A DNA stretch of 64,000 bases from Candidatus Parcubacteria bacterium (GCA_002869165.1 PKTK01000002.1:1235-65234), one strand, 5' to 3'. Counted from the stretch's first letter, positions 3,792 to 43,227 are shown. Notes: a model not told the origin generated them from the sequence alone. Made by a program: numbers and translations.

Positions 3792-3833
3792 ACAAACAAA
3801 AGACCTCAGACGTCCCTGGGACGTCGAAGGTCT
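3792..3833 (-). terminator. strong GC hairpin plus T-run on the minus strand; ends a possible non-coding transcript
   Basis: Minus strand reads agaccttcgacgtcccagggacgtctgaggtct followed by tttgtttgt. Confidence 0.45.
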
Positions 3834-3950
3834 AAATAGCACGAATAGTCCTACAAACAATTCTTGTTATTTCCACCTACTCCGTCTTATTGCGGGGGAC
3901 GGAATTTTAGCGGAGAGGAGGTGAATCTCGTGAAAAATAATTCCAACAAG

Positions 3951-4195
3951 ATCCCCTTCCCTGTCTGCCAGCAGTCAGGCCTCGCTTCGCTCGCCGGGGA
4001 TGACAAAAGAAGAACCCTCCTCACTGTCATTCCCGGCCGAAGCGAAGCGGAGGGGAAGGGAATCTAGGATTTTTCCGTAGAAACTAAACTGTCGCATGCA
4101 AACATTATAGATCTATAAGCACAAAAAAATAATATATTGTGAGTACCGCTTTATCCTGGATTCCCTTCCCTCGCTTCGCTCGCCGGGAATGACAA
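3951..4195. repeat. cluster of three half-copies of the GC-rich TGTCAT/ATGACA MITE-like element
   Basis: ...cttccc..tcgcttcgctcgccggggATGACAA ends at 4006. TGTCATtcccggccgaagcgaagcggaggggaagggaatc spans 4025-4064. Its inverted partner ggattcccttccctcgcttcgctcgccgggaATGACAA spans 4158-4195. The last two flank about 90 bp of AT-rich DNA. Confidence 0.7.
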
Positions 4196-4254: not shown

Positions 4255-5466
4255 TTATACTATTTTTCTAAAATGAAGTTTTCCTTTTTGCAGAACTCTT
4301 TCTTTGTCTTCTGGTTCTAACTCAAAGTTTTCATCTGTAATCTGTTCGCCATCCAATTTAACCCCACCCTGTTTTATCATTCTCCTAGCTTCTGATTTTG
4401 AAGCAACTAGCTCTGAGTCAAACAAAACATCGATCAAACCTTTCTTCTCTGTTAATTTATATTCTGGGATATCTGTAGGAATTTCTTTTTTCTGAACTGT
4501 TGATACAAATCTTTCCTGAGCTTCCTGAGCTGCCTCTTCACAATAATTGGCTTTTACTATTTCAAAAGCCAATTTCATTTTCATGTCTCTTGGATTGGTC
4601 TTGGGATCTTCCAATTGTTTGTATATTTCCTTCACTTCCTCAAAACTAACTTTGGTAGCTAGCTCGAAGCCAACTCCTATAACACCATCAGCCCAAGACA
4701 TCACCACTCCATACATATTTGCTGGATCCTGATCTAGAAACACTGCATTCCCCTCGCTCTTACCCATTTTCTTTCCTGAGTCATCAGCCAAAAGTTTCAT
4801 GGTCAAAACAAACTTTTCTTTCTTGCCTTCGGCTTTCATGAGGTCTCTGCCAGCCATCATATTGAACATCTGGTCATTACCACCGATTTCCAAATCTACA
4901 TCCATAGCCATAGAATCATAACCCTGAGCCAAAGGATACAAAAACTCATGCAAGTGAATTGGTTTTTCATCCTTGAGTCTTTGTTGAAACATGTCTCGCT
5001 GAATCATTTGCTGAACAGTGAAATTACTTGAAACTTCAATCAAATCTTTGAATGTTAACTTATCACTCCATTCACTATTATATTTAACAAGAGCTGGATT
5101 GTCACCATCAAATTTCAAATATCCATTGGCCTGATCTTTATAGCTTTTGGCATTTTCTAGCACTTCTTCACGAGTCAGCTTCTTTCTGGTCGCTGACTTA
5201 TCAGTTGGGTCACCAATCATGCCCGTAAAATCTCCAATCAAAAATATCACTTCGTGTCCAAGTTCCTGAAACTGAGCAAGTTTATTTATTTGAATAGCAT
5301 TACCAATATGAAGTGATGGAGCACTTGGATCAAAACCACAATACAAACGAATCCTATCTCCGCTCATTAATTTTTTCTTCAAATCTTCTTTATTTGGATA
5401 GATTTTTTCAACACCTCGTTCAAGTAAATCATCAATTTGTTTTTCATCTGTGATAACTTTGGTCAT
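4255..5466 (-). CDS. tyrS: tyrosine--tRNA ligase
   Basis: HIGH-type motif PSLHIGN, KMSKS-type KKMGKS, and a C-terminal S4 domain (SKSEARRMIKQGGVKLDG). Confidence 0.93.
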   Translation of the reverse strand: MTKVITDEKQIDDLLERGVEKIYPNKEDLKKKLMSGDRIRLYCGFDPSAPSLHIGNAIQINKLAQFQELGHEVIFLIGDFTGMIGDPTDKSATRKKLTREEVLENAKSYKDQANGYLKFDGDNPALVKYNSEWSDKLTFKDLIEVSSNFTVQQMIQRDMFQQRLKDEKPIHLHEFLYPLAQGYDSMAMDVDLEIGGNDQMFNMMAGRDLMKAEGKKEKFVLTMKLLADDSGKKMGKSEGNAVFLDQDPANMYGVVMSWADGVIGVGFELATKVSFEEVKEIYKQLEDPKTNPRDMKMKLAFEIVKANYCEEAAQEAQERFVSTVQKKEIPTDIPEYKLTEKKGLIDVLFDSELVASKSEARRMIKQGGVKLDGEQITDENFELEPEDKERVLQKGKLHFRKIV

Positions 5467-5542: not shown

Positions 5543-5565
5543 TGTCATAGCGAGCAAAGCGAAGC
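5543..5565. repeat. solo half-site of the TGTCAT MITE-like family
   Basis: tgtcatagcgagcaaagcgaagc resembles tgtcattcccggccgaagcgaagc at 4025. Confidence 0.4.
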
Positions 5566-5597
5566 AATAACAAATGAAAAAATTACATAAATGGATT

Positions 5598-9572: not shown

Positions 9573-9622
9573 ATGTAATTCTTTATAAATTAATTATAAC
9601 ATTTTTAAATATTTTTTTAAAA

Positions 9623-9660
9623 TAAAAAAGCGACTAAAATCTTTTAATGATTTTAGTCGC
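9623..9660 (-). terminator. intrinsic terminator after the methyltransferase gene
   Basis: gcgactaaaatc / gattttagtcgc 12-bp stem with a T-run on the minus strand. Confidence 0.75.
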
Positions 9661-9666
9661 CAAGAA

Positions 9667-10701
9667 TTATTTACGACATACTGCAACCTGATGTATGCCT
9701 AGTGGCTCCAGATAAATTTCTGATTTACCACGAGAAAAACCTGCGTCATCAACAAGGGTTTTCATTTCATCTACTGTTCTGTAAATCATATTCCAAAGGA
9801 GCACCCAATCCAGAAATATCTTTTCTTTATTGGGAATTATATTGCAGGTAAGAAAAACTCCTGAAGCAGGAAGACCATTTTTAATAGCCTTAAACAAACG
9901 AGTCGCCATTGCGTCATCAAGATAATCAAGAAATCCAACCATCTCAACAATGTTTGGTTTAAATGTTTTCAGGTAAGTGAAAGCTCTAGCATATGAAGTC
10001 TTCACAAATTGGAAACAATTAACAATTCCCGCTTCCGTTGCTGCCTTCTTGGCTGCATCCAATGAATCCTGATTTACATCAATTAGAACTACATGAACAT
10101 CTTTATCTGGACACTTTTTGATTGCGGCAATAACCGCGTCAGCAGATCCAGAGGCAATTGAGAGAATTCGGGGATTCTCTTGCTTGGAAATTTCTACGGC
10201 CAAAAGGCCAATTACCATCTTAAGACGATTAGTAACCGCCTGACGATTTTCCATTTTTCCTATCCACCATTTTGTTATGAACCCCTCAAAATTATTCCCC
10301 AAATTAGGGAAAACCCTTTCTTGGTAGTGATAAAAAAGCTCCAAAGAATCACAAGTAGTTGCACCCCACTTTGCCTGAGCATTCCATTTGGAAAAGCCGT
10401 CAACAAACAAAGAAGAGACATGTTTTTTGTTTCTTCCAAGCTTATAGACTGTATAAGGAAAGCCTCGTTTTCTACATTTTTCATTTCTTGTTATCATAAG
10501 AAAGACCAAAAACCCATTTTTGATCATTGCTATGCAGCTAACAAACAAAAGAGTTAACTGATAAAACATACCTGTTTTATTACATTCTCCATTAATTTGC
10601 CCCGCACAAACTTCCGTCAACTGAATTTCTGTTGTAATACTATTTTTCTTTCTTTTGACACACCCTTCATTTCCGATACTAGTAACAATATTAGTAGCCA
10701 T
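9667..10701 (-). CDS. class I SAM-dependent methyltransferase with a Cys-containing, partly hydrophobic N-terminal extension
   Basis: Motif I ILSIASGSADAV, followed by VVLIDVN and VEMVGFLDYL. GAGGG lies 6 nt upstream of the ATG at 10701. The true start could be an internal Met. Confidence 0.7.
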   Translation of the reverse strand: MATNIVTSIGNEGCVKRKKNSITTEIQLTEVCAGQINGECNKTGMFYQLTLLFVSCIAMIKNGFLVFLMITRNEKCRKRGFPYTVYKLGRNKKHVSSLFVDGFSKWNAQAKWGATTCDSLELFYHYQERVFPNLGNNFEGFITKWWIGKMENRQAVTNRLKMVIGLLAVEISKQENPRILSIASGSADAVIAAIKKCPDKDVHVVLIDVNQDSLDAAKKAATEAGIVNCFQFVKTSYARAFTYLKTFKPNIVEMVGFLDYLDDAMATRLFKAIKNGLPASGVFLTCNIIPNKEKIFLDWVLLWNMIYRTVDEMKTLVDDAGFSRGKSEIYLEPLGIHQVAVCRK

Positions 10702-13989: not shown

Positions 13990-15351
13990 TTACCTTAAAT
14001 TCTCCTCAAAAAACTTATCCAATTCATCCATTTTCACCCTACTTTGCTCCATAGTATCCCTATCTCTTACAGTTACACTTCCCTCTTCCAGTCCATCAAA
14101 GTCTACTGTTACGCAGTATGGAGTACCGATCTCGTCTTGTCTGCGGTAGCGTTTGCCAATATTACCATTGTCATCAAATTCGCAAGTGAATTTCTTGCTC
14201 AATTCTCCTAATATTTCCTTGGCCTTGGCTACTAGGTCTGGTTTATTTTTTAGAAGTGGAAATACTGCTACCTTGATAGGAGCTATATTTTTTGGAAACT
14301 TCATTACTACTCTATCCTCTTCTTCTGTATAGGCAGCGGTCATTGCAACTAGAACCGATCTATCCAAACCAAAGGTTGGCTCAAGAACGTGTGGAACGTA
14401 TCTGCGATTATTGACCGCATCGAAATATTCAAGCTTTTGATTGGAAAACTTGGAATGTTGTGTGAGATCAAAGTCGGATCTATGAGCTAGACCAGTGATC
14501 TCACCCCAACCAAAAGAAAATTTATATTCTAAATCAACTGTTTTTTGTGAGTAATGAGAAAGTTTGTCTTTGGGGTGTTCGTATCTTCTTAGATTTTCCT
14601 TGTCTACCCCTATAGAAATCAAAAACTCTTCCTGTTTGTCCAGCCATTCATTGAAAAGTGGCTCCCATTTCATTTCTGGATCAATAAAATATTCAATCTC
14701 CATTTGCTCAAATTCCCGAATTCTAAAAATAAAATTCCTTGCTACAATTTCATTACGAAAAGCCTTGCCAATTTGTGCTATACCAAAAGGTACTTTTACC
14801 CTCATAGAATCTGTCACATTTTTAAAATCTACAAAAATAGCTCCAGCAGTTTCTGGTCGCAAATATACTGGTTCATTAATCCCGTTCATTTCGGTCTTGA
14901 ACATCATGTTTAGATTTCTGGCTTCAGTGAAATCCTTGCCTCCGCATTCGGGACACTTATATTCACCTGATTGAAGTATCTTGGTCATCTCATCAAGTTG
15001 TCCTTCTAGATCCTGACCAGTTAATTCCTCAACCAAATGATCTGCCCTAAATCTTTTTTTACATTTTTTACAATCAACCATCGCATCATTGAAACCATCG
15101 GTATGACCAGAGGCTTGCCAAAGCTTAGGATGAAGTAATATTGGTCCATCGATTCCTACCATGTCTGCTCGCTCTTTGACAAACATACTCCACCAAGCAT
15201 CTTTGATATTCTTTTTTAATTCAGCTCCATAAGGCCCATAAGAATAAGCATTGGCAAATCCTCCATAGATCTCACAAGCTGGAAAAATAAAACCACGTCG
15301 TTTAGAAAACGAAACGATTTTTTGCATGGTGTCTTGTTTTTTTTCGCTCAT
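13990..15351 (-). CDS. glyQS: glycine--tRNA ligase (dimeric class II type)
   Basis: MSEKKQDTMQKIVSFSKRRGFIFPACEIYGG..., plus a zinc-ribbon-like insert and a C-terminal anticodon-binding domain. The 73 extra N-terminal codons in the track are the translated T-box and MITE leader. Confidence 0.92.
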   Translation of the reverse strand: MSEKKQDTMQKIVSFSKRRGFIFPACEIYGGFANAYSYGPYGAELKKNIKDAWWSMFVKERADMVGIDGPILLHPKLWQASGHTDGFNDAMVDCKKCKKRFRADHLVEELTGQDLEGQLDEMTKILQSGEYKCPECGGKDFTEARNLNMMFKTEMNGINEPVYLRPETAGAIFVDFKNVTDSMRVKVPFGIAQIGKAFRNEIVARNFIFRIREFEQMEIEYFIDPEMKWEPLFNEWLDKQEEFLISIGVDKENLRRYEHPKDKLSHYSQKTVDLEYKFSFGWGEITGLAHRSDFDLTQHSKFSNQKLEYFDAVNNRRYVPHVLEPTFGLDRSVLVAMTAAYTEEEDRVVMKFPKNIAPIKVAVFPLLKNKPDLVAKAKEILGELSKKFTCEFDDNGNIGKRYRRQDEIGTPYCVTVDFDGLEEGSVTVRDRDTMEQSRVKMDELDKFFEENLR

Positions 15352-15361: not shown

Positions 15362-15472
15362 TTGTCATTCTGGGGCTTCATAGCGGAGCGGAGAAGAACC
15401 CGGAATCCAGATACGTTATTGAATGGTGGATCCCGGGTTCCTTCCGTTTCACTCCAGGACCCAGGATGACAA
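15362..15472. mobile_element. 111-bp GC-rich palindromic MITE-like element (TTGTCAT...ATGACAA) in the glyQS leader
   Basis: Terminal inverted repeats ttgtcattctggg / cccaggatgacaa and inner arms gaagaacccggaatcca / tggatcccgggttccttc. It sits between the T-box terminator and the start codon. Confidence 0.7.
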
Positions 15473-15484
15473 ATAATAATTAAT

Positions 15485-15645
15485 AAAAAAACTCGTTCTA
15501 AGAATCTATTATAAAATAGATTGCTAGAACGAGATTTCTCGCGGTTCCATCTAGCTTCCCTGTCTATCAACAGGGCACCTTGATCTCTAGTAGCTTATCC
15601 ATCTGGAATAAGGGCGCCAATCTCCTCACATAACTACTTATTAAT
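15485..15645 (-). promoter_or_regulatory. T-box riboswitch leader of glyQS
   Basis: Minus strand reads AGCUAGAUGGAACCGCGAGA (T-box; the UGGA bulge fits the UCCA end of tRNA-Gly). GCUAGA can pair with UCUAGC of the terminator 5' arm to form the antiterminator. The terminator is CUCGUUCUAGCAAUCUAUU / AUAGAUUCUUAGAACGAG plus U7. GGC and GGU triplets occur in the stem I region. Confidence 0.8.
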
Positions 15646-15767
15646 TTTTCACCTAAATACTATTATACGGATTTTAGGCATTTTGTCAACTCACATATCT
15701 ATATAACTCAAAAATGACAATTTATTTAAAAAATGCTACAATTCTATTATATAAATAAAATAATTTT

Positions 15768-16334
15768 ATGGCTAATTTTGAACAACAACAACAAAATATC
15801 AAGGAGAAAATTACTAGCGACAAAGAAGCTTGGCAAAAAAATGAAAACAATGTTCTGACTGATTATATGAATAATTTCGCCAAAGAAACTAGCCCAAGTC
15901 TTGCTAATAGAATTTTTCAAAAATTAAAAGAAGAAAAAGCAAGTACAGGAAATATTACTGAAAAAAGCATATTAGATGAGGCTAAACTAATGTTCAACAA
16001 ATTAAATACACCTGACTCAAAAATGAGCGAAGAAGAGCTAATCAATATCATCATGAAGAAAAAATTTCCAGCTCCTGAAGATATGAATCAAAAAGAAATA
16101 CTGGACAAAGAGTTTACTGATATTGAAGCTACTTACAATGCATTGGTCAAAAATTCCAGCATCGAAGAATTGGAACTTCTAAGAAAAAGAATAGCTGAAC
16201 TAGATTCTGGACTCAAAAGCACACCAGAAATAAAAAAAGAGTCAATGAAACAGATCGTTCCCTTGGCTCAAATGGATAAGAATATTGAACAAAGACTAGA
16301 CAATCTAAAAGAGAACATCCAACAAGCTATCTAA
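15768..16334 (+). CDS. hypothetical coiled-coil protein
   Basis: Long ORF on the otherwise rarely used plus strand. Charged heptad-like composition. Followed by a bidirectional terminator. Confidence 0.55.
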   Translation: MANFEQQQQNIKEKITSDKEAWQKNENNVLTDYMNNFAKETSPSLANRIFQKLKEEKASTGNITEKSILDEAKLMFNKLNTPDSKMSEEELINIIMKKKFPAPEDMNQKEILDKEFTDIEATYNALVKNSSIEELELLRKRIAELDSGLKSTPEIKKESMKQIVPLAQMDKNIEQRLDNLKENIQQAI

Positions 16335-16342
16335 AATATTAT

Positions 16343-16375
16343 AAAAAAAGCATGATACAAATCATGCTTTTTTGT
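16343..16375. terminator. bidirectional terminator
   Basis: agcatgat / atcatgct stem between an A-run and a T-run. It overlaps the TGA stop of 16362..16760. Confidence 0.7.
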
Positions 16376-16760
16376 TTATTGCTAAACTAACAAGATGGTT
16401 AAAAACATACTCCAGTTTATTCTTGTACTTATAGCTTAATAGAGAATGGCAAAAAAAAGTCCAGATCTCTCGTTCCTTTGTTCCTTGCACGAAATAATCA
16501 TAAGGAGCGTGTTTAATTTTTAAAAAGTATAACTCTTCTTCTGGTAGAGAAGTATTAACAATGATAACGCCCTTGGTAGACTCTAGTTCTTTTTTTGATA
16601 AACACGGAAAATCAATATTTAAATTTTGAAAGGTTTTTTCTATTTTTTTCTTTTCCGCTTTATCAATTATTTTTTCTTCTAATAATTTTTTTAAAATTAT
16701 TTTTAAACTTAGACTTTTTAAAAGAGCTGGCTTTTTGTGTCCTGAAACACATGATTGCAT
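16362..16760 (-). CDS. hypothetical protein
   Basis: 132-aa ORF with a strong SD (AAAGGAGGTAAAAATTA-ATG). I recognise no family. Confidence 0.6.
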   Translation of the reverse strand: MQSCVSGHKKPALLKSLSLKIILKKLLEEKIIDKAEKKKIEKTFQNLNIDFPCLSKKELESTKGVIIVNTSLPEEELYFLKIKHAPYDYFVQGTKEREIWTFFCHSLLSYKYKNKLEYVFNHLVSLAINKKA

Positions 16761-16835
16761 TAATTTTTACCTCCTTTTATTTAATAAAATACTCTAACAA
16801 TTTATTAATATTTTGTCAAGGCCTATTTTCCCATA

Positions 16836-16873
16836 TAAAAACAGCCCCTGTTTTAAACAGAGGCTGTTTTTTG
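16836..16873. terminator. terminator after the M20 peptidase gene
   Basis: acagcc...ggctgt stem flanked by A and T runs. Confidence 0.55.
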
Positions 16874-17077
16874 TTTTTCCTTAATGAGTTCTAACTTGCT
16901 AAATCGTTAAAACACCACTATGATTTATCTTCAGATGAAAATAAATCAACAATACTGTTTTATTAAAAAAATCGGTCCTAAACATTATGTATTAATTATA
17001 TACATTTTTTTTGATTTTGACAAGTATTTTTTAGATATTTTTAATTTTTAATTTTTTTATTTAAAATTAGACAAAAA

Positions 17078-18160
17078 TTAAGTACAAATTTCCACCAAAA
17101 AGCTTATCATTTTTTGCATATGTGTAATTTTTATACTTTCTCTTATGCTATGTGGATTACTTCCCCCCTTGGAAATCACCACACTATTTAGGCCTTTTTT
17201 ATTAAAAATATTAGCATCACTAGCTGCATTATCAATAAATTTACTATTTATCCCAAGTTCTTTATTTACTAGCACTATTTCTTTGATAAGTGAATTAGTA
17301 CGTAAATGACGATAACCAGGACATTTCAAACTAGACTTAAAATAATACCTGGCTTTATGTTTTCTAGAAGATTTTTTAAAAGCTTTAGAGACTAAATCAA
17401 TTTGTCTTAAAGCACTATCCTGATTATATGCTCTAACTTCGCCTTTTATATAAACTTCTTCCGGAACCGTATTTATCCCAATACCTCCTTTTATTTCACC
17501 AATATTTAAAGTAGTTGTTTTATTGATTCTGCCTATTTTTAATTCACTTATAGCATCTCCTGTTACCTTGATAGCATTAACTCCTTTTTCTGGCACATCT
17601 CCTGCATGAGCAGATTTGCCTTTTATTTTGATTTCAAAATTATAAATAAAAGGAGACTTCATGATAATAGCTCCAGGAGGCATAGAATGATCCAAAACTA
17701 TTACATCTTTTGATCTAATCTTCTTATAGTTTAAATTAATTGAACCAGCAAAATACTTTTCTTCCCCACAAGTAAAGATAAGCTCAATTGGCCTATGTTT
17801 GATATTTTTAATCTTTAAATATTTTACAGCTTCAAGTATTTCAGTAATTGACGCCTTATCATCAGCACCAAGAATTGTTTCGCCCTTTGATCTAACAATA
17901 TCATTCTTCACTACTGGTTCTATTCCTCTTCCTGGCTCAACCGTGTCCATGTGAGCACAAAGTGCTAAAAACTCTCCATACCCATCCAATCTAGCAATGA
18001 CATTACCAAATTTATCTTGGCTTGCATCAACACCAATCCTTTTGAGATATCTCTTGATATAAAAAGCAACCTTAGTCTCTTCCCCGGAAACTGAGTCGAT
18101 TTTTATGAGATCAAAAAATGTGTCTTTTATTTGTTTTTTACTAGTCATATTTTTTCTCAT
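17078..18160 (-). CDS. M20-family metallopeptidase (PepT / tripeptidase-like)
   Basis: IDSVSGEE, CAHMDTV, GADDKA and TCGEE metal/catalytic blocks. Start is ambiguous (Met at 18196, 18160 or 18148). Confidence 0.8.
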   Translation of the reverse strand: MRKNMTSKKQIKDTFFDLIKIDSVSGEETKVAFYIKRYLKRIGVDASQDKFGNVIARLDGYGEFLALCAHMDTVEPGRGIEPVVKNDIVRSKGETILGADDKASITEILEAVKYLKIKNIKHRPIELIFTCGEEKYFAGSINLNYKKIRSKDVIVLDHSMPPGAIIMKSPFIYNFEIKIKGKSAHAGDVPEKGVNAIKVTGDAISELKIGRINKTTTLNIGEIKGGIGINTVPEEVYIKGEVRAYNQDSALRQIDLVSKAFKKSSRKHKARYYFKSSLKCPGYRHLRTNSLIKEIVLVNKELGINSKFIDNAASDANIFNKKGLNSVVISKGGSNPHSIRESIKITHMQKMISFLVEICT

Positions 18161-18248
18161 TAATATAATAATACTACAATTTATAAATATAAACAATAAA
18201 AAAACTCCGATAAAAAATTTACCAGAGTTTTATTTTAGAGAGATTTTT

Positions 18249-18446
18249 TTAATTTACTTCCAATTGAAGAATTGCTTTTGGGTGAGCATAAACCTTGGTC
18301 ATTTCATCAATCCAATTCCTTACTTTTTCCTCACTTACCCCCTCTTTAACAGCACCATCAGGACTTATGGACCCTAAATGAAATCTAAAAAAAGGTTTTT
18401 GTTCATCTCTGGAATATTGATCATAACCCCGTACCCTCATCCTCAT
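18249..18446 (-). CDS. small hypothetical protein (65 aa)
   Basis: Start at MRMRVRGYDQ..., preceded by AAGGAGGAG. Third gene of a tightly packed small-gene trio. Confidence 0.5.
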   Translation of the reverse strand: MRMRVRGYDQYSRDEQKPFFRFHLGSISPDGAVKEGVSEEKVRNWIDEMTKVYAHPKAILQLEVN

Positions 18447-18457
18447 TTCTCTCCTCC

Positions 18458-18691
18458 TTATTTTTTCCTCATTTTCCCTACACTCATGATTATCCCGCTT
18501 GCATGCCAAACCATATTTAACACATCTACAACATCCTCAGCTTCTCTATCTGATATCTCATCACTAAAAATACCATCTTCGTTAAATCTACCTCTTGAAT
18601 AAATCAATAGAACAATTCTTTGTGCATCATTGTGCTTTGAAAAATTTTTTATAAACTTTGTCTTTTGTTTAAAATCACAACTTTTTGTCAT
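18458..18691 (-). CDS. small hypothetical protein (77 aa)
   Basis: ATG at 18691 (MTKSCDFKQ...). Gaps to its neighbours are 11 nt and 21 nt. Confidence 0.45.
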   Translation of the reverse strand: MTKSCDFKQKTKFIKNFSKHNDAQRIVLLIYSRGRFNEDGIFSDEISDREAEDVVDVLNMVWHASGIIMSVGKMRKK

Positions 18692-18712
18692 TTCCAAAAT
18701 TTTTCTCCCTAT

Positions 18713-18883
18713 TTATTTTTTTCTTTTTTCATAGCTAAGCATGCCGCATTCATTACTGCATTTTTTATATATCTCTATATTTCCCTTACTTTCTTCTATT
18801 GTTTCAATAATATATCCTTGGCCACATTTTTTACAAACTCCCATTTTTTTTCTTAGATCACAAAACTCGTATGTTTCAGACAT
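18713..18883 (-). CDS. small zinc-ribbon protein (56 aa)
   Basis: My own translation: MSETYEFCDLRKKMGVCKKCGQGYIIETIEESKGNIEIYKKCSNECGMLSYEKRKK, with two CxxC-like pairs. SD is AGAGGAGAGATAA-ATG. Confidence 0.55.
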   Translation of the reverse strand: MSETYEFCDLRKKMGVCKKCGQGYIIETIEESKGNIEIYKKCSNECGMLSYEKRKK

Positions 18884-19126
18884 TTATCTCTCCTCTCTTT
18901 TCAATGAACAGAATAAAAAACCACTCTTTACACAAGAGCAGTCATCTTTTAATAAATTTGAATAAAACTAATCAAAAGAAGCCTGCTCTTTTAAGAGAAG
19001 CAGGTTGACCAGTAACAAAATTGAACTGAAAAACTTTTGACTATTCATATATAAATTTATTAAATGTTTGATAACCGGAAATTTATTAAAATAAATTTCC
19101 GGTCTTTTGTTTACGGAGAGTTTTAG

Positions 19127-19321
19127 CTAGTCTTGCGGACCGCCTAATTGAAAAGAAAAAAATTTCTTTTCTGCTTTTTTTATTTCAAGAAGCTTAGCCG
19201 CTAATCTCCTTTTCTCGAGTGGACAGGTTGCCTCATTCATTCTGGCAAGCAAACATTCACCATTCTTCACAATTCTGTCAAAACTCTCTACCTTTTCCCA
19301 AGTTCCAGCGCCTCCAACCAT
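19127..19321 (-). CDS. small hypothetical protein (64 aa)
   Basis: Start at MVGGAGTWEKV..., preceded by AAGGGGGAAAGT. A terminator-like hairpin follows at about 18975-19010. Confidence 0.5.
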   Translation of the reverse strand: MVGGAGTWEKVESFDRIVKNGECLLARMNEATCPLEKRRLAAKLLEIKKAEKKFFSFQLGGPQD

Positions 19322-19331
19322 ACTTTCCCCC

Positions 19332-19529
19332 TTAAAAAATGTTTGATTTTGCGATTGCTTTTTCAATACCTTTTTTTGTTGTCTTCAATCCGTATTTATA
19401 TTTTTTATAACCTTCAACGTCGCCAGATGCAATTGCCTTTTTAAGCTTAAACTCCAAGGCATTTTGTTGAATTGCTAAATGCCCCAAAACTCCATCACTT
19501 TCCCTACACAAATGACTACCTAATTCCAT
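19332..19529 (-). CDS. small hypothetical protein (65 aa)
   Basis: The ORF ends 10 nt before the next small gene. No recognisable family. Confidence 0.45.
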   Translation of the reverse strand: MELGSHLCRESDGVLGHLAIQQNALEFKLKKAIASGDVEGYKKYKYGLKTTKKGIEKAIAKSNIF

Positions 19530-19837
19530 TTTCTCTCCATTTTAAATGAACGTTTAAATTAAATAAACCGCCTTTTCCCTGGGCGGTTCTTCTTCTTACT
19601 ATTTTGATTTACCGCCCAATTTTATCCATTCTTAATCAGCACCACGTTAGTCATGCCAAAAATAGAAGATAGAGTTGTCCAATAAATATTTTTCATACTT
19701 ATTTAATATTAAAAAAATTTAATGTTTTTGTCAATGCAATATTTAATAGCTAAAATTAGTAAATATTTTTTTATATTTTTAACTATTATCTAATATTAGC
19801 TAGTTTTCCACAATAATAGAGATAACAGGCAAGATAT

Positions 19838-19864
19838 AAAAAAAGAGGCTTTCGCCTCTTTTTG
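19838..19864 (-). terminator. intrinsic terminator after ndk
   Basis: agaggc-tttc-gcctct stem followed by a T-run on the minus strand. Confidence 0.7.
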
Positions 19865-19903
19865 AAATACTATCACCTATTTTCTGTCATCTACTATTTA
19901 AAA

Positions 19904-20542
19904 CTATTCTTTAATCCCATCCAAATTAACATCATAAAGAATTTTTTCTTGAACGTGATTGTACTTAAGTACTTCATCTTTTTCAAACCAAATTTTAATT
20001 TCCTTTTCTGCTTCATCAACTGCACCAGATGCGTGAATCAAATTTCTAACACTTCTTTGATCAGTATCAGCCAAAGCATATGAATCAAGAGTAAAATCGC
20101 CTCTAATTGTTCCTACGTCAGCTAGAAGTGGCGCAGTTGCTCCAGTAATTTTTCTAACCAATTCTACTGCTGCATGCCCTTCCCAAATCATAGCTACTAC
20201 TGGCCCTGAACTTAAATACTTAGCATTTGACTTTAGAACTGCCCAGCCATTTTCTTTGTTTGTTTTGTATGGACTTTCCTCGCCTTTTTTTTCATATGCA
20301 GCCCGAGCTTTTCTGCCAACTTCCTCGATCCATTCATCTCCCCCAACTTCATAATAATGTTTAGTTGCCATGTCTTCATCTGGCATTACCATTTTCATTG
20401 CTACTAACTTTAGACCAACTCTTTCATATCTACGGATAATTTCACCGATCAATGATCTTTGAACTCCATCAGGTTTCACAATAACCAATGTTTTTTCGTT
20501 TTTCATAAGTAAATTAAAACCATTTGCCTTATATTCAAACAT
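19904..20542 (-). CDS. ndk: nucleoside-diphosphate kinase with an internal insertion
   Basis: KTLVIVKPDGVQRSLIGEII and the active-site region NLIHASG. The likely true start is Met13 (20506, MKNEKTLVIVKPDG). Confidence 0.8.
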   Translation of the reverse strand: MFEYKANGFNLLMKNEKTLVIVKPDGVQRSLIGEIIRRYERVGLKLVAMKMVMPDEDMATKHYYEVGGDEWIEEVGRKARAAYEKKGEESPYKTNKENGWAVLKSNAKYLSSGPVVAMIWEGHAAVELVRKITGATAPLLADVGTIRGDFTLDSYALADTDQRSVRNLIHASGAVDEAEKEIKIWFEKDEVLKYNHVQEKILYDVNLDGIKE

Positions 20543-20570
20543 AAAAACAAATGGAGATTAATAAAATTAA

Positions 20571-20939
20571 TTATTTTAAATATTTTGCTACATGTTCAGA
20601 AACTTTACTTGGGGTAAGGTTGGCCTTTACCAAGTAATCAGTAGCGCCAAATTTCTCTCCCTTTTCTTTATCCTCAGTGGTGCCAAGATTTGTAAGCATA
20701 ATGATTGGTGTTTCCTTAAAAGTGCTTTTTAGTCGTAATTCTTGCAACAAAGCAAAGCCATCCATCATGGGCATCATCACATCCAGAAGTATCAAATCAG
20801 GTTTTTCTATCACAGCTACTTCCAGGCCTTGCCCGCCATTATCTGCTGTAACAACAGCATAACCCTCCTGCTCCAATCTGGTTTTATACATACCAGAAAT
20901 CATTGCATCATCTTCGATTATTAATACTTTTTTTGCCAT
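20571..20939 (-). CDS. stand-alone response-regulator receiver protein (CheY-like)
   Basis: MAKKVLIIEDD, DLILLDVMMPMMDG, PIIMLTNLG and a K in KANLTP. No output domain. Confidence 0.85.
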   Translation of the reverse strand: MAKKVLIIEDDAMISGMYKTRLEQEGYAVVTADNGGQGLEVAVIEKPDLILLDVMMPMMDGFALLQELRLKSTFKETPIIMLTNLGTTEDKEKGEKFGATDYLVKANLTPSKVSEHVAKYLK

Positions 20940-21018
20940 ATTTTTTAGATTAAATATATTAAAACTACTTCTAGTATAGCAAAAAATAACCAAATTTCAA
21001 GACCCGAGTTAAAAATTA

Positions 21019-21900
21019 CTATTTTTCAGTAACCACACTGATATTCTCACCATTACTAGAAAAACTTATTGTTCCCTGTAAATCCGTTCTAAATGTTTCT
21101 ACATTTCCTCTCTCTAATCTAGATATTACAATATTTTTGGGGTGACCAAAATAATTATTAGCCCCTACTGAAATCACGGCATAATCAGCCTGAACTGCGT
21201 CCAAAAATTCGACTGTGTTTGAAGTATCAGAACCATGATGAGGAACTTTTAAAACATCTACATCTAAATTACTATAATTTTCTAAAATAGCTTCTTCTAT
21301 TTCTTCTTCAATATCGCCCGTAAAAAGAAAGGTTGTATCTTTGTAAGCAAGTTTAGCTACAATTGAAGTATTATTAAGATTTGAAGAATCAATATTTTCT
21401 TTTGAAAAAGGGTAAACAATCTCCAAAAACAAATCATCTCCCAAAATTATTTTTTGCGGATGATCAACTATCTCCAAAACAATTTCCTTTTCTTTAATCT
21501 TTTCTAAAAAAGAAATATATTCCGGACTATTATGAATAGCGCCAGTATACAAAACTTGCCCCACCTCATATTCATCCAATATAAAATTAAGTCCACCAAC
21601 ATGATCTGAGTGCGGATGAGTTAAAATGAGCAAATCAATATATTTATCAAATGGAGATATTATTTTCGATAGTTCTTCAAGTATTTTTTCACTCTCTCCT
21701 CCATCAATCAGAATTTCTTGTTTGTCTGGAGTTCTGATTAAACTTGCATCTCCTTGACCAACATCAATAAAATCTACCTCCAACAAACCTGTATCAGCTT
21801 TGGCAAAAAAAGCATAATTTTCAATAGTTCTAAAAACTGCTACTACAAATATTATAATAACAAAAAAAACAAAAGAAACTTTTATGAAATTCTTAAACAT
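21019..21900 (-). CDS. membrane-anchored MBL-fold hydrolase (ComEC C-terminal-domain-like)
   Basis: N-terminal TM helix, ILTHPHSDHVGG and VPHHGS motifs. Confidence 0.75.
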   Translation of the reverse strand: MFKNFIKVSFVFFVIIIFVVAVFRTIENYAFFAKADTGLLEVDFIDVGQGDASLIRTPDKQEILIDGGESEKILEELSKIISPFDKYIDLLILTHPHSDHVGGLNFILDEYEVGQVLYTGAIHNSPEYISFLEKIKEKEIVLEIVDHPQKIILGDDLFLEIVYPFSKENIDSSNLNNTSIVAKLAYKDTTFLFTGDIEEEIEEAILENYSNLDVDVLKVPHHGSDTSNTVEFLDAVQADYAVISVGANNYFGHPKNIVISRLERGNVETFRTDLQGTISFSSNGENISVVTEK

Positions 21901-21906
21901 CTTTTT

Positions 21907-22308
21907 TTATAAAATGTTTTGAGTGTAGTCTCTAAATAAAGTAATAAGATAATCAATGCTAGTAAAAAACACTAATAAAACCCCCAGTCCAACTAAGCCA
22001 GAGATAAAATTTGTTTTATGAACATTGGCTAGGTCACCGTTAGCACTTTCTAATTTATATTTTATTGCTCCGATGAAAATTTTAGAAATAGCAACGATAA
22101 AAGCAATAGAGGCTACAAAATAAATAAACAAAGTCGCCACACTGATCATCATATCCCAGTCAATACTGACAATTGATGTTGGGGCACTACTACGAGAATA
22201 GTCACGCCAAATCTCATCTAAATCAGAAGCATACAAAAAAGAATCTGGGAAAAACAATATTCCCAGAAATATAAATATAATAAAAATTTTTCTTAAATTT
22301 ATTTGCAT
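21907..22308 (-). CDS. small integral membrane protein
   Basis: Signal/TM segment plus two further hydrophobic helices. No family recognised. Confidence 0.5.
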   Translation of the reverse strand: MQINLRKIFIIFIFLGILFFPDSFLYASDLDEIWRDYSRSSAPTSIVSIDWDMMISVATLFIYFVASIAFIVAISKIFIGAIKYKLESANGDLANVHKTNFISGLVGLGVLLVFFTSIDYLITLFRDYTQNIL

Positions 22309-22310
22309 TT

Positions 22311-23336
22311 TTACAATACACCAATCTTTTTCAAAATTAATTCACTACGCTCTTTTTTTAGCTTATCTTCTTGTGCTTGAAGCATAGCTTCTTCAGAATC
22401 CTTGATATATTTATCAATATTTTCATCTAAATTATTATTATTTAATAAATATGCAATCTCTGTGTCATTTATATCATAAGCGCCCTTTCTTAAACCAGAC
22501 ATAATCTCTTTGTTTTGATTTTTTCTTTCTAGTAATAATCTAATTCTTTTCTGGGCCTTGGCTACAGATGCTCTTTTATCAGCAATTTCTAGCCAAATAT
22601 CTTTTAAATCACTTAAAATATTCGAACCAGCTTCTCTACCTACCATGCCTCCAATAGACAATTCTTTTAATACACTTATTGCTTCAGCCATGCTTGCCGT
22701 ACCAACATCCAAATTGACTTCCAGGTCATATTTATTCATGACAGAATGATCGTCTATAGCGTTGATCTCTGATTGAGTTTTCTTTAAAATTTTATTAAAA
22801 TCTTCAAAATCTCCTTTGTATATTGTTGTTACTTCATCTCCACCATGTCGACAAACATTTCTGATATTTGACTTCAATCTATCTGCAATTTTTTTAAGTA
22901 ACTCATCACCACTAGCATGATTTCCTCCTTCATTTGCAATGCTCAAAAATGAGATATCACCCATCATTATATGAATCTTTTCTGTTTCAATATTCTTAGA
23001 CTCGTCAAACAATATCCTTTCTAAATCTTCTCTTGTTTCTATACCGTTTTTTTTAATACCAAAGATTCTTTCAATTTCTTTGTTTGCTATAGAAAAAAGC
23101 TCACCTCTTCTTTTTAGTCCAGTTAATTCATCATATTTAGCTTTATACAATTCTTTTTCTCTGCTTTCGTTAACATATTCTAAATCAATTCCATCAGCAA
23201 TAAAATCTTCCCTAAGCTTATCATATTCCTCTTTACTTAATTTATCTTTTAAGTTCTTGCCTTGTTCTTCATCAAAAAAATTTCCCAATTGTTCTTCGGG
23301 ACTAAAAACTTCCTTGTTGAAATTTTCAATGCTCAT
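22311..23336 (-). CDS. degenerate GGDEF-domain protein (GGDEV)
   Basis: DELTGLKRRGELF, GDISFLSIANEGGNHASGDELL and RHGGDEV follow the order of diguanylate-cyclase motifs. Confidence 0.6.
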   Translation of the reverse strand: MSIENFNKEVFSPEEQLGNFFDEEQGKNLKDKLSKEEYDKLREDFIADGIDLEYVNESREKELYKAKYDELTGLKRRGELFSIANKEIERIFGIKKNGIETREDLERILFDESKNIETEKIHIMMGDISFLSIANEGGNHASGDELLKKIADRLKSNIRNVCRHGGDEVTTIYKGDFEDFNKILKKTQSEINAIDDHSVMNKYDLEVNLDVGTASMAEAISVLKELSIGGMVGREAGSNILSDLKDIWLEIADKRASVAKAQKRIRLLLERKNQNKEIMSGLRKGAYDINDTEIAYLLNNNNLDENIDKYIKDSEEAMLQAQEDKLKKERSELILKKIGVL

Positions 23337-23345
23337 TAACTTATA

Positions 23346-23822
23346 TTATGAATGAATCTTTTGAATAAATTCCTTAATCTGCTCTTCGTATGCTTCTTTC
23401 TTAACCTGTAAGGTAGATAAATGTAAATTAGCCATAGATTTCTTTCCCAATTTCTCCTCCATCATACCAAAAATGTTCTCTTGTTTTGGCGGTTCTGCAC
23501 CTTGGGTAATAATTAATGCAACTTCGCCCATATTTTCTTTTTGTTTTTCAATAAAAGTACTTATTGGCACAGAAGGACGCCAAGCCCAAACAGGTGTAGC
23601 CAAAACACACAAGTCATAATCAGCTGGACTTTTATCAAATTCTTCCAACTCGGTCAAAGCTCCTCTCATAGCATCACTCCCGGCAGTCATATAACCTTTT
23701 ATTCCTGTTCGATTTTTTTTATCTTTAATCTCTAAAATATCAGCTGATAATTTTTCAGCTATTTTTTCTGCAATTTTTTTTGTTGTTTGTGTTCGAGAAT
23801 AGTAAATAATTAAAGTTCTCAT
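23346..23822 (-). CDS. flavodoxin-family protein
   Basis: MRTLIIYYSRTQTTKKIAEKIAEKL, an FMN-binding loop-type N-terminus; about 160 aa. Confidence 0.7.
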   Translation of the reverse strand: MRTLIIYYSRTQTTKKIAEKIAEKLSADILEIKDKKNRTGIKGYMTAGSDAMRGALTELEEFDKSPADYDLCVLATPVWAWRPSVPISTFIEKQKENMGEVALIITQGAEPPKQENIFGMMEEKLGKKSMANLHLSTLQVKKEAYEEQIKEFIQKIHS

Positions 23823-23840
23823 ATAATTAATTTAATAATA

Positions 23841-25634
23841 TTAATCTTTTCTGAACTTCAGTCCCAAATCCTTTAATTGCTTTTCATCTACTTTAGCTGG
23901 ACTATCCATCATCAAGTCCTTGCCTTTACCATCCTTAGGAAAAGCGTAAATATCTCTAATTGATTCGTAATCATTTAAAACCATCAAAATTCTATCAATC
24001 CCTGGAGCATTCCCGCCATGTGGTGGTGCGCCATATTCAAAGGCTCTGATCATAGCGCCAAACTTCTCATCTACTTCTTCTTTTTTATAACCAGCAATCT
24101 CAAAAGCCTTATACATGATACGTGGGTCATGATTTCTGATTGCTCCTGAACTAGCTTCAAAACCGTTAACAACTAGATCAAATTGAAAAGCCTTAATTTC
24201 TAATGGACTTTCAGTCTCCAAAGCTTCTAGGCCTCCTTGAGGCATAGAGAATGGATTGTGCCCAAAGTCAATTCTCCCGTCTTCAATTTCAGAATAATCA
24301 AACATTGGAAAATCAACTATCCAGCACCAAGCAGCTTTAGTAGTATCTTTTAATCCAAGACGGGCGCCACATTCATTTCTAACAGCTCCCAAGGCATCAC
24401 ATACTGTACGCCACTTGTCTGCTCCAAAGAAAATAATATCACCTTTTTCTGCCTTTGTCTCTTTTATTATTTTAGCACATATTTCGTCTCCCAAAAACTT
24501 AACAATTGGAGACTGCAAACTACCGTCATCTTTGAGTACAATATAAGCGAGTCCCTTCGCACCATTTTCAAAAGCCAGATTAGTTAATTCATCTATATCT
24601 TTTCTGGTGAATTTTTCACCACCAGCTACACGCATAGCATGAACTACATGACCTTCTTTTTCTGCCATGTCAGCAAATACTTTAAAACCACTCCCCTTCA
24701 CTAGTTCAGTTACTGAAACTATCTCCATGTCAAAACGCAAATCAGGTTTATCTGTGCCATATTTATTCATTGATTCCAAATATGGAATTTGTTTGAATCG
24801 ACCGTCTTTTTCCAATCCAACTATTTCCTTATCACTCATTTCCTTGGTCAAACCAATCATCAAAGGCTCCATAAGACGAAAAATATCATCTTGCTCCACA
24901 AAGCTCATTTCCATATCCAATTGATAAAATTCTCCGTAATGCCTATCCATTCTTGAATCTTCATCACGAAAACATGGTGCAATCTGAAAATACTTATCCA
25001 TACCACCGACCATCAAAAGTTGTTTGAATTGTTGCGGGGCTTGAGGAAGAGCAAAGAAAGATCCCGGATACATGCGAGAAGGGATTAAAAAGTCTCTAGC
25101 TCCTTCAGGTGAAGAATTTGCTAATATCGGGGTTTGAATTTCTGTAAAATCATTATCATGAAAATATTTTCTCAGATACTTGATCATCTTATCTTTTTGC
25201 TCAAGCATTTTTTGAATTTTTTCTCGACGCAAATCAATAAATCTATATTTTAATCTTATAGTCTCGTTGGCTTCATGAGCTTTTTCTTCGTCAAGTTCAA
25301 AAGGAGGAGTTTTGGATGTATTTAAAACACTGAGTTTGGAAATTTCTACCTCAATTTCTCCTGATTTTAATTTTTTATTCACCATGTCGTCTGGTCTGGC
25401 AATTACTTTACCAGTAACCTGAATAACCCACTCACTTCGCAAAACATCAGCTTGCTTATGAGCTTCTTTGTCCACCTCAGGGTCAAAAGTCACTTGGGTA
25501 AGTCCATACCTATCACGCAGATCAATAAAAATAATCCCTCCATGATCACGCCTACGATGTACCCAACCACACAATGTAACTTCATCACCGATATTAGCTT
25601 TGTTTAATTCGCCATTAGTATGTGTTCTTAACAT
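23841..25634 (-). CDS. aspS: aspartate--tRNA ligase
   Basis: MLRTHTNGEL...GWVHRRRDHGGIIFIDLRDRYG, class II motifs FRDED and GGNAPGIDR. The upstream in-frame Met codons (25652, 25694) lie inside the MITE. Confidence 0.92.
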   Translation of the reverse strand: MLRTHTNGELNKANIGDEVTLCGWVHRRRDHGGIIFIDLRDRYGLTQVTFDPEVDKEAHKQADVLRSEWVIQVTGKVIARPDDMVNKKLKSGEIEVEISKLSVLNTSKTPPFELDEEKAHEANETIRLKYRFIDLRREKIQKMLEQKDKMIKYLRKYFHDNDFTEIQTPILANSSPEGARDFLIPSRMYPGSFFALPQAPQQFKQLLMVGGMDKYFQIAPCFRDEDSRMDRHYGEFYQLDMEMSFVEQDDIFRLMEPLMIGLTKEMSDKEIVGLEKDGRFKQIPYLESMNKYGTDKPDLRFDMEIVSVTELVKGSGFKVFADMAEKEGHVVHAMRVAGGEKFTRKDIDELTNLAFENGAKGLAYIVLKDDGSLQSPIVKFLGDEICAKIIKETKAEKGDIIFFGADKWRTVCDALGAVRNECGARLGLKDTTKAAWCWIVDFPMFDYSEIEDGRIDFGHNPFSMPQGGLEALETESPLEIKAFQFDLVVNGFEASSGAIRNHDPRIMYKAFEIAGYKKEEVDEKFGAMIRAFEYGAPPHGGNAPGIDRILMVLNDYESIRDIYAFPKDGKGKDLMMDSPAKVDEKQLKDLGLKFRKD

Positions 25635-25645
25635 AAAAGATTTTT

Positions 25646-25739
25646 TTGTCATCTCGAACGGAGTGAGAGATCCCTTAAACATGAAATAGTTCACGGCTAA
25701 GGGATTTCTCCTTCCGCTTCGCTACACTCGAAATGACAA
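25646..25739. mobile_element. 94-bp GC-rich MITE-like element (TTGTCAT...ATGACAA) in the aspS leader
   Basis: ttgtcatctcgaacggagtgagagatccc ... gggatttctccttccgcttcgctacactcgaaatgacaa. Same family and relative position as the glyQS copy. Confidence 0.7.
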
Positions 25740-25751
25740 AATTTAATTAAT

Positions 25752-25965
25752 AAAAAAATTCGTCCTAGTTTCAGTATTAATAAATACTGAAACTAGGACG
25801 AATTTTCTTCGCGGTACCACCTAGATTCTCTGTTTTTTAACAAAGCTCTCAAACTGCTATAACGGGCTTACCCGGCAGGTTCTAGTCACTTTTTATTCAA
25901 GCTTTCTTCCTGCTCCTTCCTCAAGTGTTGGCTTGAGTCAAATGGATTTAAATATTTAATTGTAT
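25752..25965 (-). promoter_or_regulatory. T-box riboswitch leader of aspS
   Basis: Minus strand reads AAUCUAGGUGGUACCGCGAAG, a near-consensus T-box. CUAGG can pair with CCUAG of the terminator arm. The terminator has 21-nt arms (25758-25778 / 25784-25804) plus U7. A GAC triplet lies in the candidate specifier region. Confidence 0.85.
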
Positions 25966-29078: not shown

Positions 29079-29690
29079 CTATAATCCTCCTATACGAGGG
29101 TGGTTACTTGAATTAACTCTATTATCATTAAAAGCTCCTGGTCCTGCTTTGCTTATACTCTGTTCTCCACCTATGGTTAAGCCTCTAGAATTTGGTTTAG
29201 AATCATTTTTTTTGGAAGCTAAATCACCATGAGCACCTGCCTTAAAGCCTTGATTAGCTGATTTTATGTCCAAGCTACCAGAATCTTTCCCACCCAAAAC
29301 CCCTGTCTGTTTATACAACTTATCTTTAGGACTTTGAAATTGTTGCTTCGCCACTCTTTTAAAGCCTGATAAAAAAGAATTTTTTTTCTTTGGTTTTGCT
29401 TTAGTCGTCTCAGCACTTTCATTTGAACTCTCGCCACCATAAAGCTTTTTCATAACAGGCATAAACTTTTTTATGTCATTATATTTTACCTTTTTTTTCG
29501 TAAGGTAAAGCTTAAATTTTTTATCATTTTTTTCTTTATTATTTATTGCCGAAAATCTGGAAATATCTTCCCCCCAATCCACAGATTCACCATTTGCCTT
29601 TATATTTTCAATCTTTTTCAATTTTCTCTTGCTAAGAAATTTTTTGTTCTTATGATATCCTTTTGGTATTATGAAATCATTGTTTGTCAT
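29079..29690 (-). CDS. hypothetical Lys-rich protein
   Basis: ORF packed 3 nt from the downstream gene. Low-complexity and basic. Confidence 0.45.
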   Translation of the reverse strand: MTNNDFIIPKGYHKNKKFLSKRKLKKIENIKANGESVDWGEDISRFSAINNKEKNDKKFKLYLTKKKVKYNDIKKFMPVMKKLYGGESSNESAETTKAKPKKKNSFLSGFKRVAKQQFQSPKDKLYKQTGVLGGKDSGSLDIKSANQGFKAGAHGDLASKKNDSKPNSRGLTIGGEQSISKAGPGAFNDNRVNSSNHPRIGGL

Positions 29691-37307: not shown

Positions 37308-37748
37308 TTATTTTAGCTCTGAACTTGCACTTTTTGCTGCTTCTTTGGCAGTTTCAGAGAATTTAACATTCTTAAATTGAAGGCCTTTCAAGGTTAATTT
37401 TCCTTGTCCTAAAATCTTTACATCTTTATTTTTATCATCAATTAGACCTTTAGCAAGTAGAGTGGTAGGGCTCACAATATCATTATCTTTAAAACTACTG
37501 CTAATTACATTCAAGTTTACAACTTGATTTTTGTCTTTCAAGGACTTAAAACCACGTTTTTTTGGAGGTCGAAGCAAAACTTGTTTCATACCTAAACGCT
37601 TCAAGTTTGAAACACCTGATCTTGCCTTTTGTCCTTTAAGACCTTTGCCACTATATGTGCCTGTTCCACTTGCATTACCGCGACCAATTCTCTTTCTGGT
37701 TTTTCCTGAACCTGCACCTGGCTTTATTGTATGTAGTGATATTGTCAT
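37308..37748 (-). CDS. rplO: 50S ribosomal protein L15
   Basis: KRIGRGNASGTGTYSGKGLKGQKARSG. Confidence 0.93.
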   Translation of the reverse strand: MTISLHTIKPGAGSGKTRKRIGRGNASGTGTYSGKGLKGQKARSGVSNLKRLGMKQVLLRPPKKRGFKSLKDKNQVVNLNVISSSFKDNDIVSPTTLLAKGLIDDKNKDVKILGQGKLTLKGLQFKNVKFSETAKEAAKSASSELK

Positions 37749-43226: not shown

Positions 43227-43227
43227 C

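Follow-up and report, generated by a model that had tools for sequence, protein, structure and literature searches.

The closest described relatives of the repeats reported here are the repetitive extragenic palindromes (REPs) that carry a CGTC tag, a class that includes dRS3 of Neisseria and RPE-4 and RPE-6 of Rickettsia (Di Nocera, De Gregorio and Rocco 2013, PMC3733652). Our subject is a family of palindromic elements in a 64,000-nt stretch of a Candidatus Parcubacteria genome (GCA_002869165.1, PKTK01000002.1:1235-65234; ~33% GC, nearly all genes on the minus strand; hereafter the window), two of which separate a T-box terminator from the start codon of an aminoacyl-tRNA synthetase (aaRS) gene, glyQS or aspS. 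In the 2013 survey, units consist of a CGTC tag (TGTC in many repeats), a stem that starts with complementary A and T, and a 3-bp tail; stems measure 8–9 bp and loops 4–5 nt. Head-to-head (HH) dimers with spacers of 20–100 bp predominate, their two units folding either on their own or together as a long hairpin, and heterodimers, intragenic copies and lineage-dependent abundance are all described. The published copies lie mostly near the 3′ ends of upstream genes, and the survey found no transposase dedicated to them.

The Neisseria repeat has since been redefined as NTS, consensus CGTCATTCCCGCGMAVGCGGGAATCYRG (Nat Commun 2025, PMC11893778). According to that paper SsnA, a 94-aa GIY-YIG protein, binds and cuts NTS solely as single-stranded DNA; the C right after the palindrome decides binding and the three bases before it decide cutting, loop identity and length not being critical. 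In Neisseria and Wolbachia, Ssn GIY-YIG nucleases bind and cut repeats of this class in the form of single-stranded hairpins. Their small (~94 aa), cd10448-type genes often have repeats on their flanks, and the NTS-ssnA-NTS arrangement resembles an insertion sequence (IS). NTS copies cluster non-randomly around particular Neisseria genes, where recombination is limited because Ssn cuts incoming single strands.

We consider it likely that the window elements are HH dimers of TGTC-tagged REP-class units, carried as tolerated passengers in the free gap before the glyQS and aspS starts. With the CGTC-tagged REPs they share the tag, the AT-starting stem, the tail, HH dimers, heterodimers, intragenic copies and an abundance that varies by lineage; they differ in adjoining start codons inside T-box leaders and in their host, a member of the Patescibacteria, or candidate phyla radiation (CPR). 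The likeness to the NTS/SRM–Ssn system lies in the GTC before and C after the palindrome and in repeats clustering near particular genes, whereas the window units miss the SRM pattern and no cd10448-type gene was seen in 71 kb. REPINs (RAYT-associated, GTAG-tagged) similarly replicate as two inverted units plus spacer forming a long hairpin, with singletons as remnants, but the window tag is TGTC and no RAYT gene was found among the 20 window open reading frames (ORFs) scanned. Correia/NEMIS, ERIC, RUP and BOX are likewise small palindromic inserts beside genes, co-transcribed as stable hairpins able to alter mRNA fate; those elements have longer terminal inverted repeats (TIRs), several with target-site duplications and a parent IS, none of which is seen here. 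Literature searches found no report of such repeats in this CPR group or in T-box leaders. A term search for 'Patescibacteria' gave no occurrence in PMC11893778, and the cited portion of PMC3733652 does not name the CPR.

Unit anatomy and class

The pattern TTGTCAT-N(70-100)-ATGACAA occurs exactly three times in the window, where shuffles predict 0.02 matches, and recovers the three elements of a preliminary description, at glyQS, at aspS and between rpsE and rplO. The broader proposal of a dispersed family of small palindromic elements also holds, several copies forming long hairpins. Individual units, whose loops vary from 4 to 39 nt, were sought with a rule-based detector and checked on reversed-sequence controls: the strict filter returned seven window units against none in the reversed control, the relaxed filter eight against two. 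The census stands at four dimers and two solo units, ten units in ~71 kb (the window and 7 kb beyond it), the 7 kb past the window contributing none. Feature coordinates are as follows.

15362-15472: glyQS-leader dimer, 111 bp, head-to-head REP, from unit detection and folding
15362-15409 (+): A-type unit of the glyQS dimer, loop containing TAGCGGAGCG
15427-15472 (-): B-type unit of the glyQS dimer, loop containing GGAGTGAAACG
25646-25739: aspS-leader dimer, 94 bp, head-to-head REP
25646-25674 (+): B-type unit of the aspS dimer
25701-25739 (-): A-type unit of the aspS dimer, loop containing TAGCGAAGCG
37758-37857: rpsE-rplO spacer dimer, 100 bp, head-to-head REP
37758-37796 (+): B-type unit of the rpsE-rplO dimer
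37827-37857 (-): A-type unit of the rpsE-rplO dimer
4025-4195: longer A/A head-to-head dimer, spacer ~90 nt, -82.9 kcal/mol
4025-4067 (+) and 4156-4195 (-): units of the longer dimer, each GTC ATTCCC..GGGAAT C
3951-4006 (-): solo unit, TTGTC ATCCCC (39-nt loop with GAGCGAAGCGAG) GGGGAT C
5543-5570 (+): degenerate solo unit, CTGTCATAGCGAGCAAAGCGAAGCAATA, 76 nt 5′ of the tyrS start

Each unit is built from a (T/C)GTC tag, a stem starting with AT, a GC-rich loop, the closing stem and a tail whose first base is C. The tag reads TGTC in all ten window units; stems of 4–9 bp (ATTCCC/GGGAAT, ATTTC/GAAAT, ATCTC/GAGAT, ATTCTGGG/CCCGGAAT and ATCCTGGG/CCCGGGAT) enclose loops of 11–39 nt. The aspS element illustrates the arrangement, with GTC ATTTC (21 nt) GAAAT CCC in one unit and GTC ATCTC (11 nt) GAGAT CCC in the other. 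GTC before the palindrome and C directly after it are retained in the nine well-formed window units, whose tails are CCA, CCC, CTC, CTA and CTT; the degenerate unit keeps its GTC and is tailless, no C following its imperfect palindrome. Sequence at 3951-4195 and 5543-5565, first taken for half-copies, does belong to the family, the former as a solo unit (3951-4006) beside a complete dimer (4025-4195) and the latter as the degenerate solo unit. A further half-copy suspected at the window end (from 63953) is not confirmed and is left out of the census, as the next 300 nt offer it no hairpin partner.

Tags face outwards in all four window dimers and in dimers of L088, L091, L096, L011, L012 and L114 (related loci are given L numbers throughout). 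The three short dimers are laid out alike, a TAGCGRAGCG loop marking the A unit and a GGAGTGA loop the B unit, which argues that the dimer is copied as a whole. Relative to the aspS and rplO dimers, that of glyQS is inverted; the glyQS mRNA reads the B unit before the A unit, and the aspS mRNA the A unit before the B unit. All three fold as a long hairpin on both strands (-33 to -57 kcal/mol, z -4.2 to -8.8). The rpsE-rplO dimer is 15 nt from the rpsE stop and 9 nt from the rplO ATG (37748-37746), and the longer dimer is 60 nt 3′ of the tyrS stop. Other assemblies of the same population (L167, L169 and L170) all contain the elements.

Relatives connect these units to the published class. Units of L005, L090, L084 and L081 match the NTS consensus, those of L005 and L090 (TGTCATTCCCGCGCAGGCGGGAATCCAG) in 27 of its 28 positions. 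Stems of 8–9 bp with loops of 4–5 nt, as published, are found in units of L005, L081, L090, L084 and L114, and the SRM pattern, HGTCWYN(0-2)YYVSBRHN(0-5)WNVSBRGN(0-2)RNCYNB, has true matches in L005, L084, L090 and L114. Since L005 holds both canonical and long-loop units, the two forms are linked. Judged by sequence, the window elements are best described as a large-loop heterodimeric variant of the CGTC class, rather than as strict members.

Three observations on unit-like sequence stand apart. At L005 3215-3360 a canonical unit is followed by seven tandem ~21-bp copies of its tag-side half (GGGAATGACAGAGTGTAAGT...), the array ending 43 nt before the aspS ATG (aspS start 3399). In the window, two GC-rich, hairpin-prone stretches at 3790-3930 (for example AAGACCTCAGACGTCCCTGGGACGTCGAAGGTCT) adjoin the repeat cluster, with neither an Rfam match nor a TGTC tag. 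The heptamer ATGACAA, identical to the element terminus, opens three genes including rplO (37742-37748, 29684-29690 and 55967-55973), so that two TTGTCAT copies lie 9 nt apart at rplO.

T-box leaders with and without the element

The leaders and genes concerned are listed below.

15522-15684 (-): glyQS T-box leader, RF00230, 38.6 bits, E 4e-7
15689-15662, 15533-15492 and 15491-15485: promoter, terminator hairpin and U-run of the glyQS leader
25791-25951 (-): aspS T-box leader, RF00230, 60.7 bits, E 7e-13
25998-25970, 25804-25757 and 25758-25752: promoter, terminator hairpin and U-run of the aspS leader
13990-15351 (-): glyQS coding sequence, 453 aa from ATG 15351 (NCBI)
23841-25634 (-): aspS coding sequence, 597 aa from ATG 25634
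4255-5466: tyrS, the third aaRS gene in the window

Both leaders contain the T-box sequence, a ~20-bp terminator hairpin and a 7-U run, and a promoter matching the consensus at 12 of 12 positions (TTGACA/TATAAT) lies 5′ of each T-box. The order is the same at both genes: promoter, T-box, terminator, 12 nt, element, 10–11 nt, ATG. The element ends 10 nt before the glyQS start codon (ATG 15351-15349) and 11 nt before that of aspS (ATG 25634-25632), and the remaining 10–11 nt hold no Shine–Dalgarno sequence at either gene. RF00230 matches, U-runs and spacing thus bear out the placement of two copies in the read-through 5′ untranslated region, between T-box terminator and aaRS start.

Stem I is short, with most of it missing, and this keeps both RF00230 matches under the gathering score of 93. 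Across the whole window no Rfam family attains its gathering threshold, the elements themselves being covered by hairpin-like noise at most. Reduction of Stem I is common to T-box leaders of this CPR group (the window, L082, L171, L096 and L001), 62–75 model positions being missing; all such leaders score below the Rfam threshold and are therefore overlooked by standard annotation. The aspS leaders also have a conserved GAC before a small covarying hairpin.

Gene calls at both loci run through the element, giving a GlyRS of 526 aa (P0121, P0243; 13990-15570) and an AspRS of 613 aa (P0246; 23841-25694). The in-frame ATG extension MTKKSF-MLRTH reported for aspS is present. It is unlikely to mark the true start: this ATG is base-paired within the stem, and NCBI annotates the protein from MLRTH. 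A promoter within the element, with ATGACA as -35 box, was rejected, no -10 box lying at the right spacing and consensus promoters occurring only 5′ of the T-boxes. A literature search for peptides spuriously encoded by repeats (FARNDK and similar) gave no relevant match for those terms.

Exact-protein look-ups of AspRS with two candidate starts gave no match; by homologue search, AspRS and GlyRS are identical to proteins of a Candidatus Parcubacteria metagenome-assembled genome, whose NCBI proteins PLX27482-PLX27550 are encoded on this contig. In the nearest other genomes AspRS is 79–84% identical. Leaders of relatives without the element compare as follows.

L171: AspRS 79% identical, syntenic; T-box present; slot between terminator and start 21 nt, no element
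L082: AspRS 80% identical, syntenic; T-box present; slot ~82 nt, AT-rich (9921-10002), no element
L001: AspRS 73% identical; T-box present; slot ~75 nt, AT-rich (about 955-1027), no element
L084 and L085: GlyRS 83% and 80% identical; T-box present; no element

Orthologous T-box leaders occur in L082, L171, L001, L096, L084 and L085. As leaders are present in relatives that lack the element, they are ancestral and the insertions lineage-specific. Subtracting the element leaves window slots of 23 nt (aspS) and 22 nt (glyQS), and the distance of 10–12 nt to the start codon follows from a copy having landed in a gap of ~22 nt. None of the five elementless leaders carries an ordered hairpin in the element's place; in L084 a 125-aa ORF separates the T-box leader from glyQS. 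The rpsE-rplO spacers of L082 (53 nt) and L171 (31 nt) are also without the element, and neither locus contains a unit in 21 kb. Slot length varies across the clade, and the extra 75–82 nt of AT-rich sequence in L082 and L001 could be decayed insertions.

Units lie within coding regions as well, in frame: in L011 (1980-2072) between the catalytic and DALR domains of ArgRS, in L012 (14759-14892) between the UPF0004 and radical-SAM domains of a MiaB-like radical-SAM enzyme, and in L084 (593-620) in TGT. All three host genes are tRNA-related, in a sample that is small and biased.

On the reading we favour, the dimer would be copied as a unit and land in either orientation. In a compact genome, the ~22-nt AT-rich gap between terminator and ATG may be one of the few sites tolerating ~100 bp; copies there would be passengers whose transcripts fold into a hairpin of their own and keep the initiation region clear.

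Several observations weigh against this account. The window units give no match to the SRM pattern, and their stems of 4–9 bp and loops of 11–39 nt depart from the published sizes. An enzyme search comprising Pfam on 20 window ORFs, a six-frame motif scan and the small ORFs of the largest unannotated gap revealed no Ssn-type GIY-YIG protein, RAYT or other transposase in the window and the 7 kb beyond (nor a Y1 transposase among the 20 ORFs). The aspS slot is occupied in four further, scattered CPR lineages, a recurrence that passive tolerance leaves unexplained, and the two window leaders share an exact 12-nt spacing and a near-identical junction.

Alternatives to passive carriage

The last two points invite an alternative that keeps the same kind of repeat but makes its position non-passive: the copying mechanism would favour the site (single-stranded DNA beside a strong terminator hairpin, for instance, or the sequence just 5′ of aaRS genes such as aspS), or repeats would be kept for a DNA-level role. 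By analogy with the NTS clusters of Neisseria, that role might be to restrict recombination through Ssn cleavage of incoming single strands. We regard this alternative as unlikely, although it accounts for several observations. Across 38 low-GC CPR loci (496 kb), we scanned for units whose tag faces a long ORF starting within 65 nt, obtaining 11 hits (10 distinct units, 9 gene starts) against none in the reversed control. Four aspS genes were among them, with units 20 nt (L081), 23 nt (L091, a dimer), 30 nt (L003) and 11 nt (L096, a dimer) from the ATG; the remaining hits are one in L088, three before unrelated genes and two that are apparently spurious. Occupancy is thus 4 of 35–36 aspS genes against 4–6 of ~450 other genes (Fisher p 0.0014–0.0035), where the loci were sampled around aspS and the total of other genes is an estimate.

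The context of these copies is suggestive too. In L096 the order T-box, terminator, dimer, ~10–11 nt, ATG recurs, and a second class II aaRS gene, in L088, begins 10 nt past the end of a dimer. All three aaRS genes of the window (glyQS, aspS and tyrS) have an upstream unit, tyrS having units on both flanks. Carriers are scattered beside non-carriers in the AspRS tree and each aspS-slot carrier has the unit subtype of its own genome, which makes repeated gain more parsimonious than one ancient insertion. The 29 nt from terminator end to TTGTCAT are identical at 26 positions between the glyQS and aspS leaders, with the same 12 nt after the U-run, and the 13-mer TTTTTATTAATTA occurs within the window solely at 15477-15489 and 25744-25756. 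Clustering of NTS around genes is itself reported as non-random (PMC11893778).

The excess shrinks under closer comparison. For the ~179 genes preceded by a spacer of 100 nt or more, we estimate it at ~3–4-fold with p near 0.05; by density per kb of intergenic sequence it is ~3-fold (p 0.04–0.07), with an assignment that is partly manual. The distance from unit to ATG varies from 10 to 30 nt and the flanks share no target sequence, while the rpsE-rplO and other copies are not beside aaRS genes. Sampling was centred on aspS among the aaRS genes. AT-rich sequence also follows the terminator in leaders without the element (L082, L171 and L059), so the shared junction may belong to the leader itself and not mark a target. 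The preferred insertion target put forward in the preliminary description therefore survives in part: the aspS slot is filled in 4 of 35–36 other CPR genomes against ~1% of other genes, with p estimated near 0.05 when roomy spacers alone are compared. Slot preference is weakly supported as a real signal. The wider claim, that NTS/CGTC-type repeats across the CPR are drawn to or kept in the slot 5′ of aaRS starts, chiefly aspS, and repeatedly after T-box terminators, is in our view quite unlikely.

Very unlikely, we think, is co-option of the element as an RNA structure in the read-through transcript, whether as a second checkpoint on translation initiation, as the preliminary description suggested, or as a stabilising 5′ hairpin. 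Position gives the idea its appeal. The leader hairpins (-47 to -53 kcal/mol) end 10–11 nt from the AUG, within or at the edge of the ribosome footprint, at two genes whose remaining 10–11 nt lack a Shine–Dalgarno sequence, and the same slot is occupied again in L096. Stabilisation by a 5′ hairpin is known from processed T-box leaders such as that of B. subtilis thrS, a precedent that would also favour co-option. Folding points the other way. In minimum-free-energy folds of whole leaders no base pair leaves the element, whether to T-box, terminator, start codon or coding region. Positions -9 to +12 around the AUG have unpaired probabilities of 0.58–0.75 with the element and 0.42–0.70 without it, excluding start-codon occlusion: the AUG region is as open as in the element-deleted construct. 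The glyQS and aspS copies are inverted relative to each other, so the two leader RNAs differ in sequence.

Comparison with relatives adds to this. In L096 the dimer adopts two small, independent hairpins (z -2.35) without pairing between its arms; conservation thus extends to the DNA unit and not to a long RNA hairpin. An identical dimer type lies between rpsE and rplO, and relatives have units within coding regions. Orthologous leaders, proposed earlier as the informative comparison, speak against co-option, since five of them, L082, L001 and L171 at aspS and L084 and L085 at glyQS, have neither the insertion nor a replacement hairpin, an outcome that the preliminary description itself named as refuting. 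A dedicated second checkpoint is not supported. Any influence of the element on mRNA stability or on how ribosomes load would at most be modest.

That the family is a classical miniature inverted-repeat transposable element, an IS deletion derivative moved by a DDE transposase recognising TTGTCAT TIRs, is highly improbable: terminal repeats, a length of 94–171 bp, non-coding content, several copies and both orientations fit the label first given to it, but target-site duplications are absent from the flanks of all nine dimers (window and relatives), solo units are common, each arm has its own tagged hairpin with stems that covary between genomes, no transposase or parent IS was found in the sequence covered, and the supposed TIR corresponds to tag and stem in an already described class of REPs, so that a repeat family it remains, better described as a REP-unit dimer.

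Candidates for a partner enzyme were also considered. The 263-aa ORF at 2891-3682, beside the repeat cluster, has no Pfam hit and no GIY-YIG or HUH motif by eye, and no units flank either of the small GIY-YIG ORFs of L013 and L087. The L013 example (9590-10140), a 103-aa GIY-YIG ORF, lies between duplicated tRNA-like stretches (GGGTGGATACCGAAGCGGTCAAACGGGACAGACTG on both sides), and its sequence suggests a homing-type insertion in a tRNA gene.

Neighbouring repeats, assemblies and implications

Spacers of the ribosomal-protein cluster are unusually long (100–160 nt) and filled by at least four other AT-rich repeat families (for example ACGAATTACGAATCC... and GGAATTCTTGAGATCCTTGGGA...), with copies 72–92% identical and unrelated to the TGTC units.

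39547-39618, 42255-42326 and 44601-44672: AT-rich repeat family
41369-41527, 43077-43236 and 50891-51003: AT-rich repeat family
40940-40998 and 43917-43975: AT-rich repeat family
45115-45175 and 48482-48542: AT-rich repeat family

The L081 contig (1-47) begins within a unit 20 nt 5′ of aspS and that of L086 (1-24) begins 24 nt 5′ of glyQS, while a 151-kb assembly of the organism (ENA ERZ794999 NODE_58; L168 10331-10633) ends ~300 nt past the gene adjoining the window end; repeats may break assemblies. At 58345-60135 and 60355-63456 the window's membrane-fusion and AcrB-like genes are split (229 + 185 aa and 870 + 158 aa). The 151-kb assembly, from the same population, has each gene whole (596 and 1071 aa), and the splits are probably frameshift errors or strain differences.

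The window elements would extend the dRS3/NTS/RPE class, whose partner enzyme has been known since 2025, to the CPR, a step that rests on our having found no such report. The large-loop heterodimer is a form missed by published search patterns, and the repeats mislead gene callers at GlyRS and AspRS. For the organism, a stable hairpin of ~100 nt appears tolerable between a terminator and a start codon that lacks a Shine–Dalgarno sequence. Were the occupancy of aspS and post-T-box slots to hold genome-wide, leaders that are empty (L171) and filled (the window and L096) would form a series in which to study insertion. If the preference is true, it would imply either a copying mechanism that senses single-stranded DNA beside strong terminator hairpins, or Ssn-type control of recombination around core translation genes.

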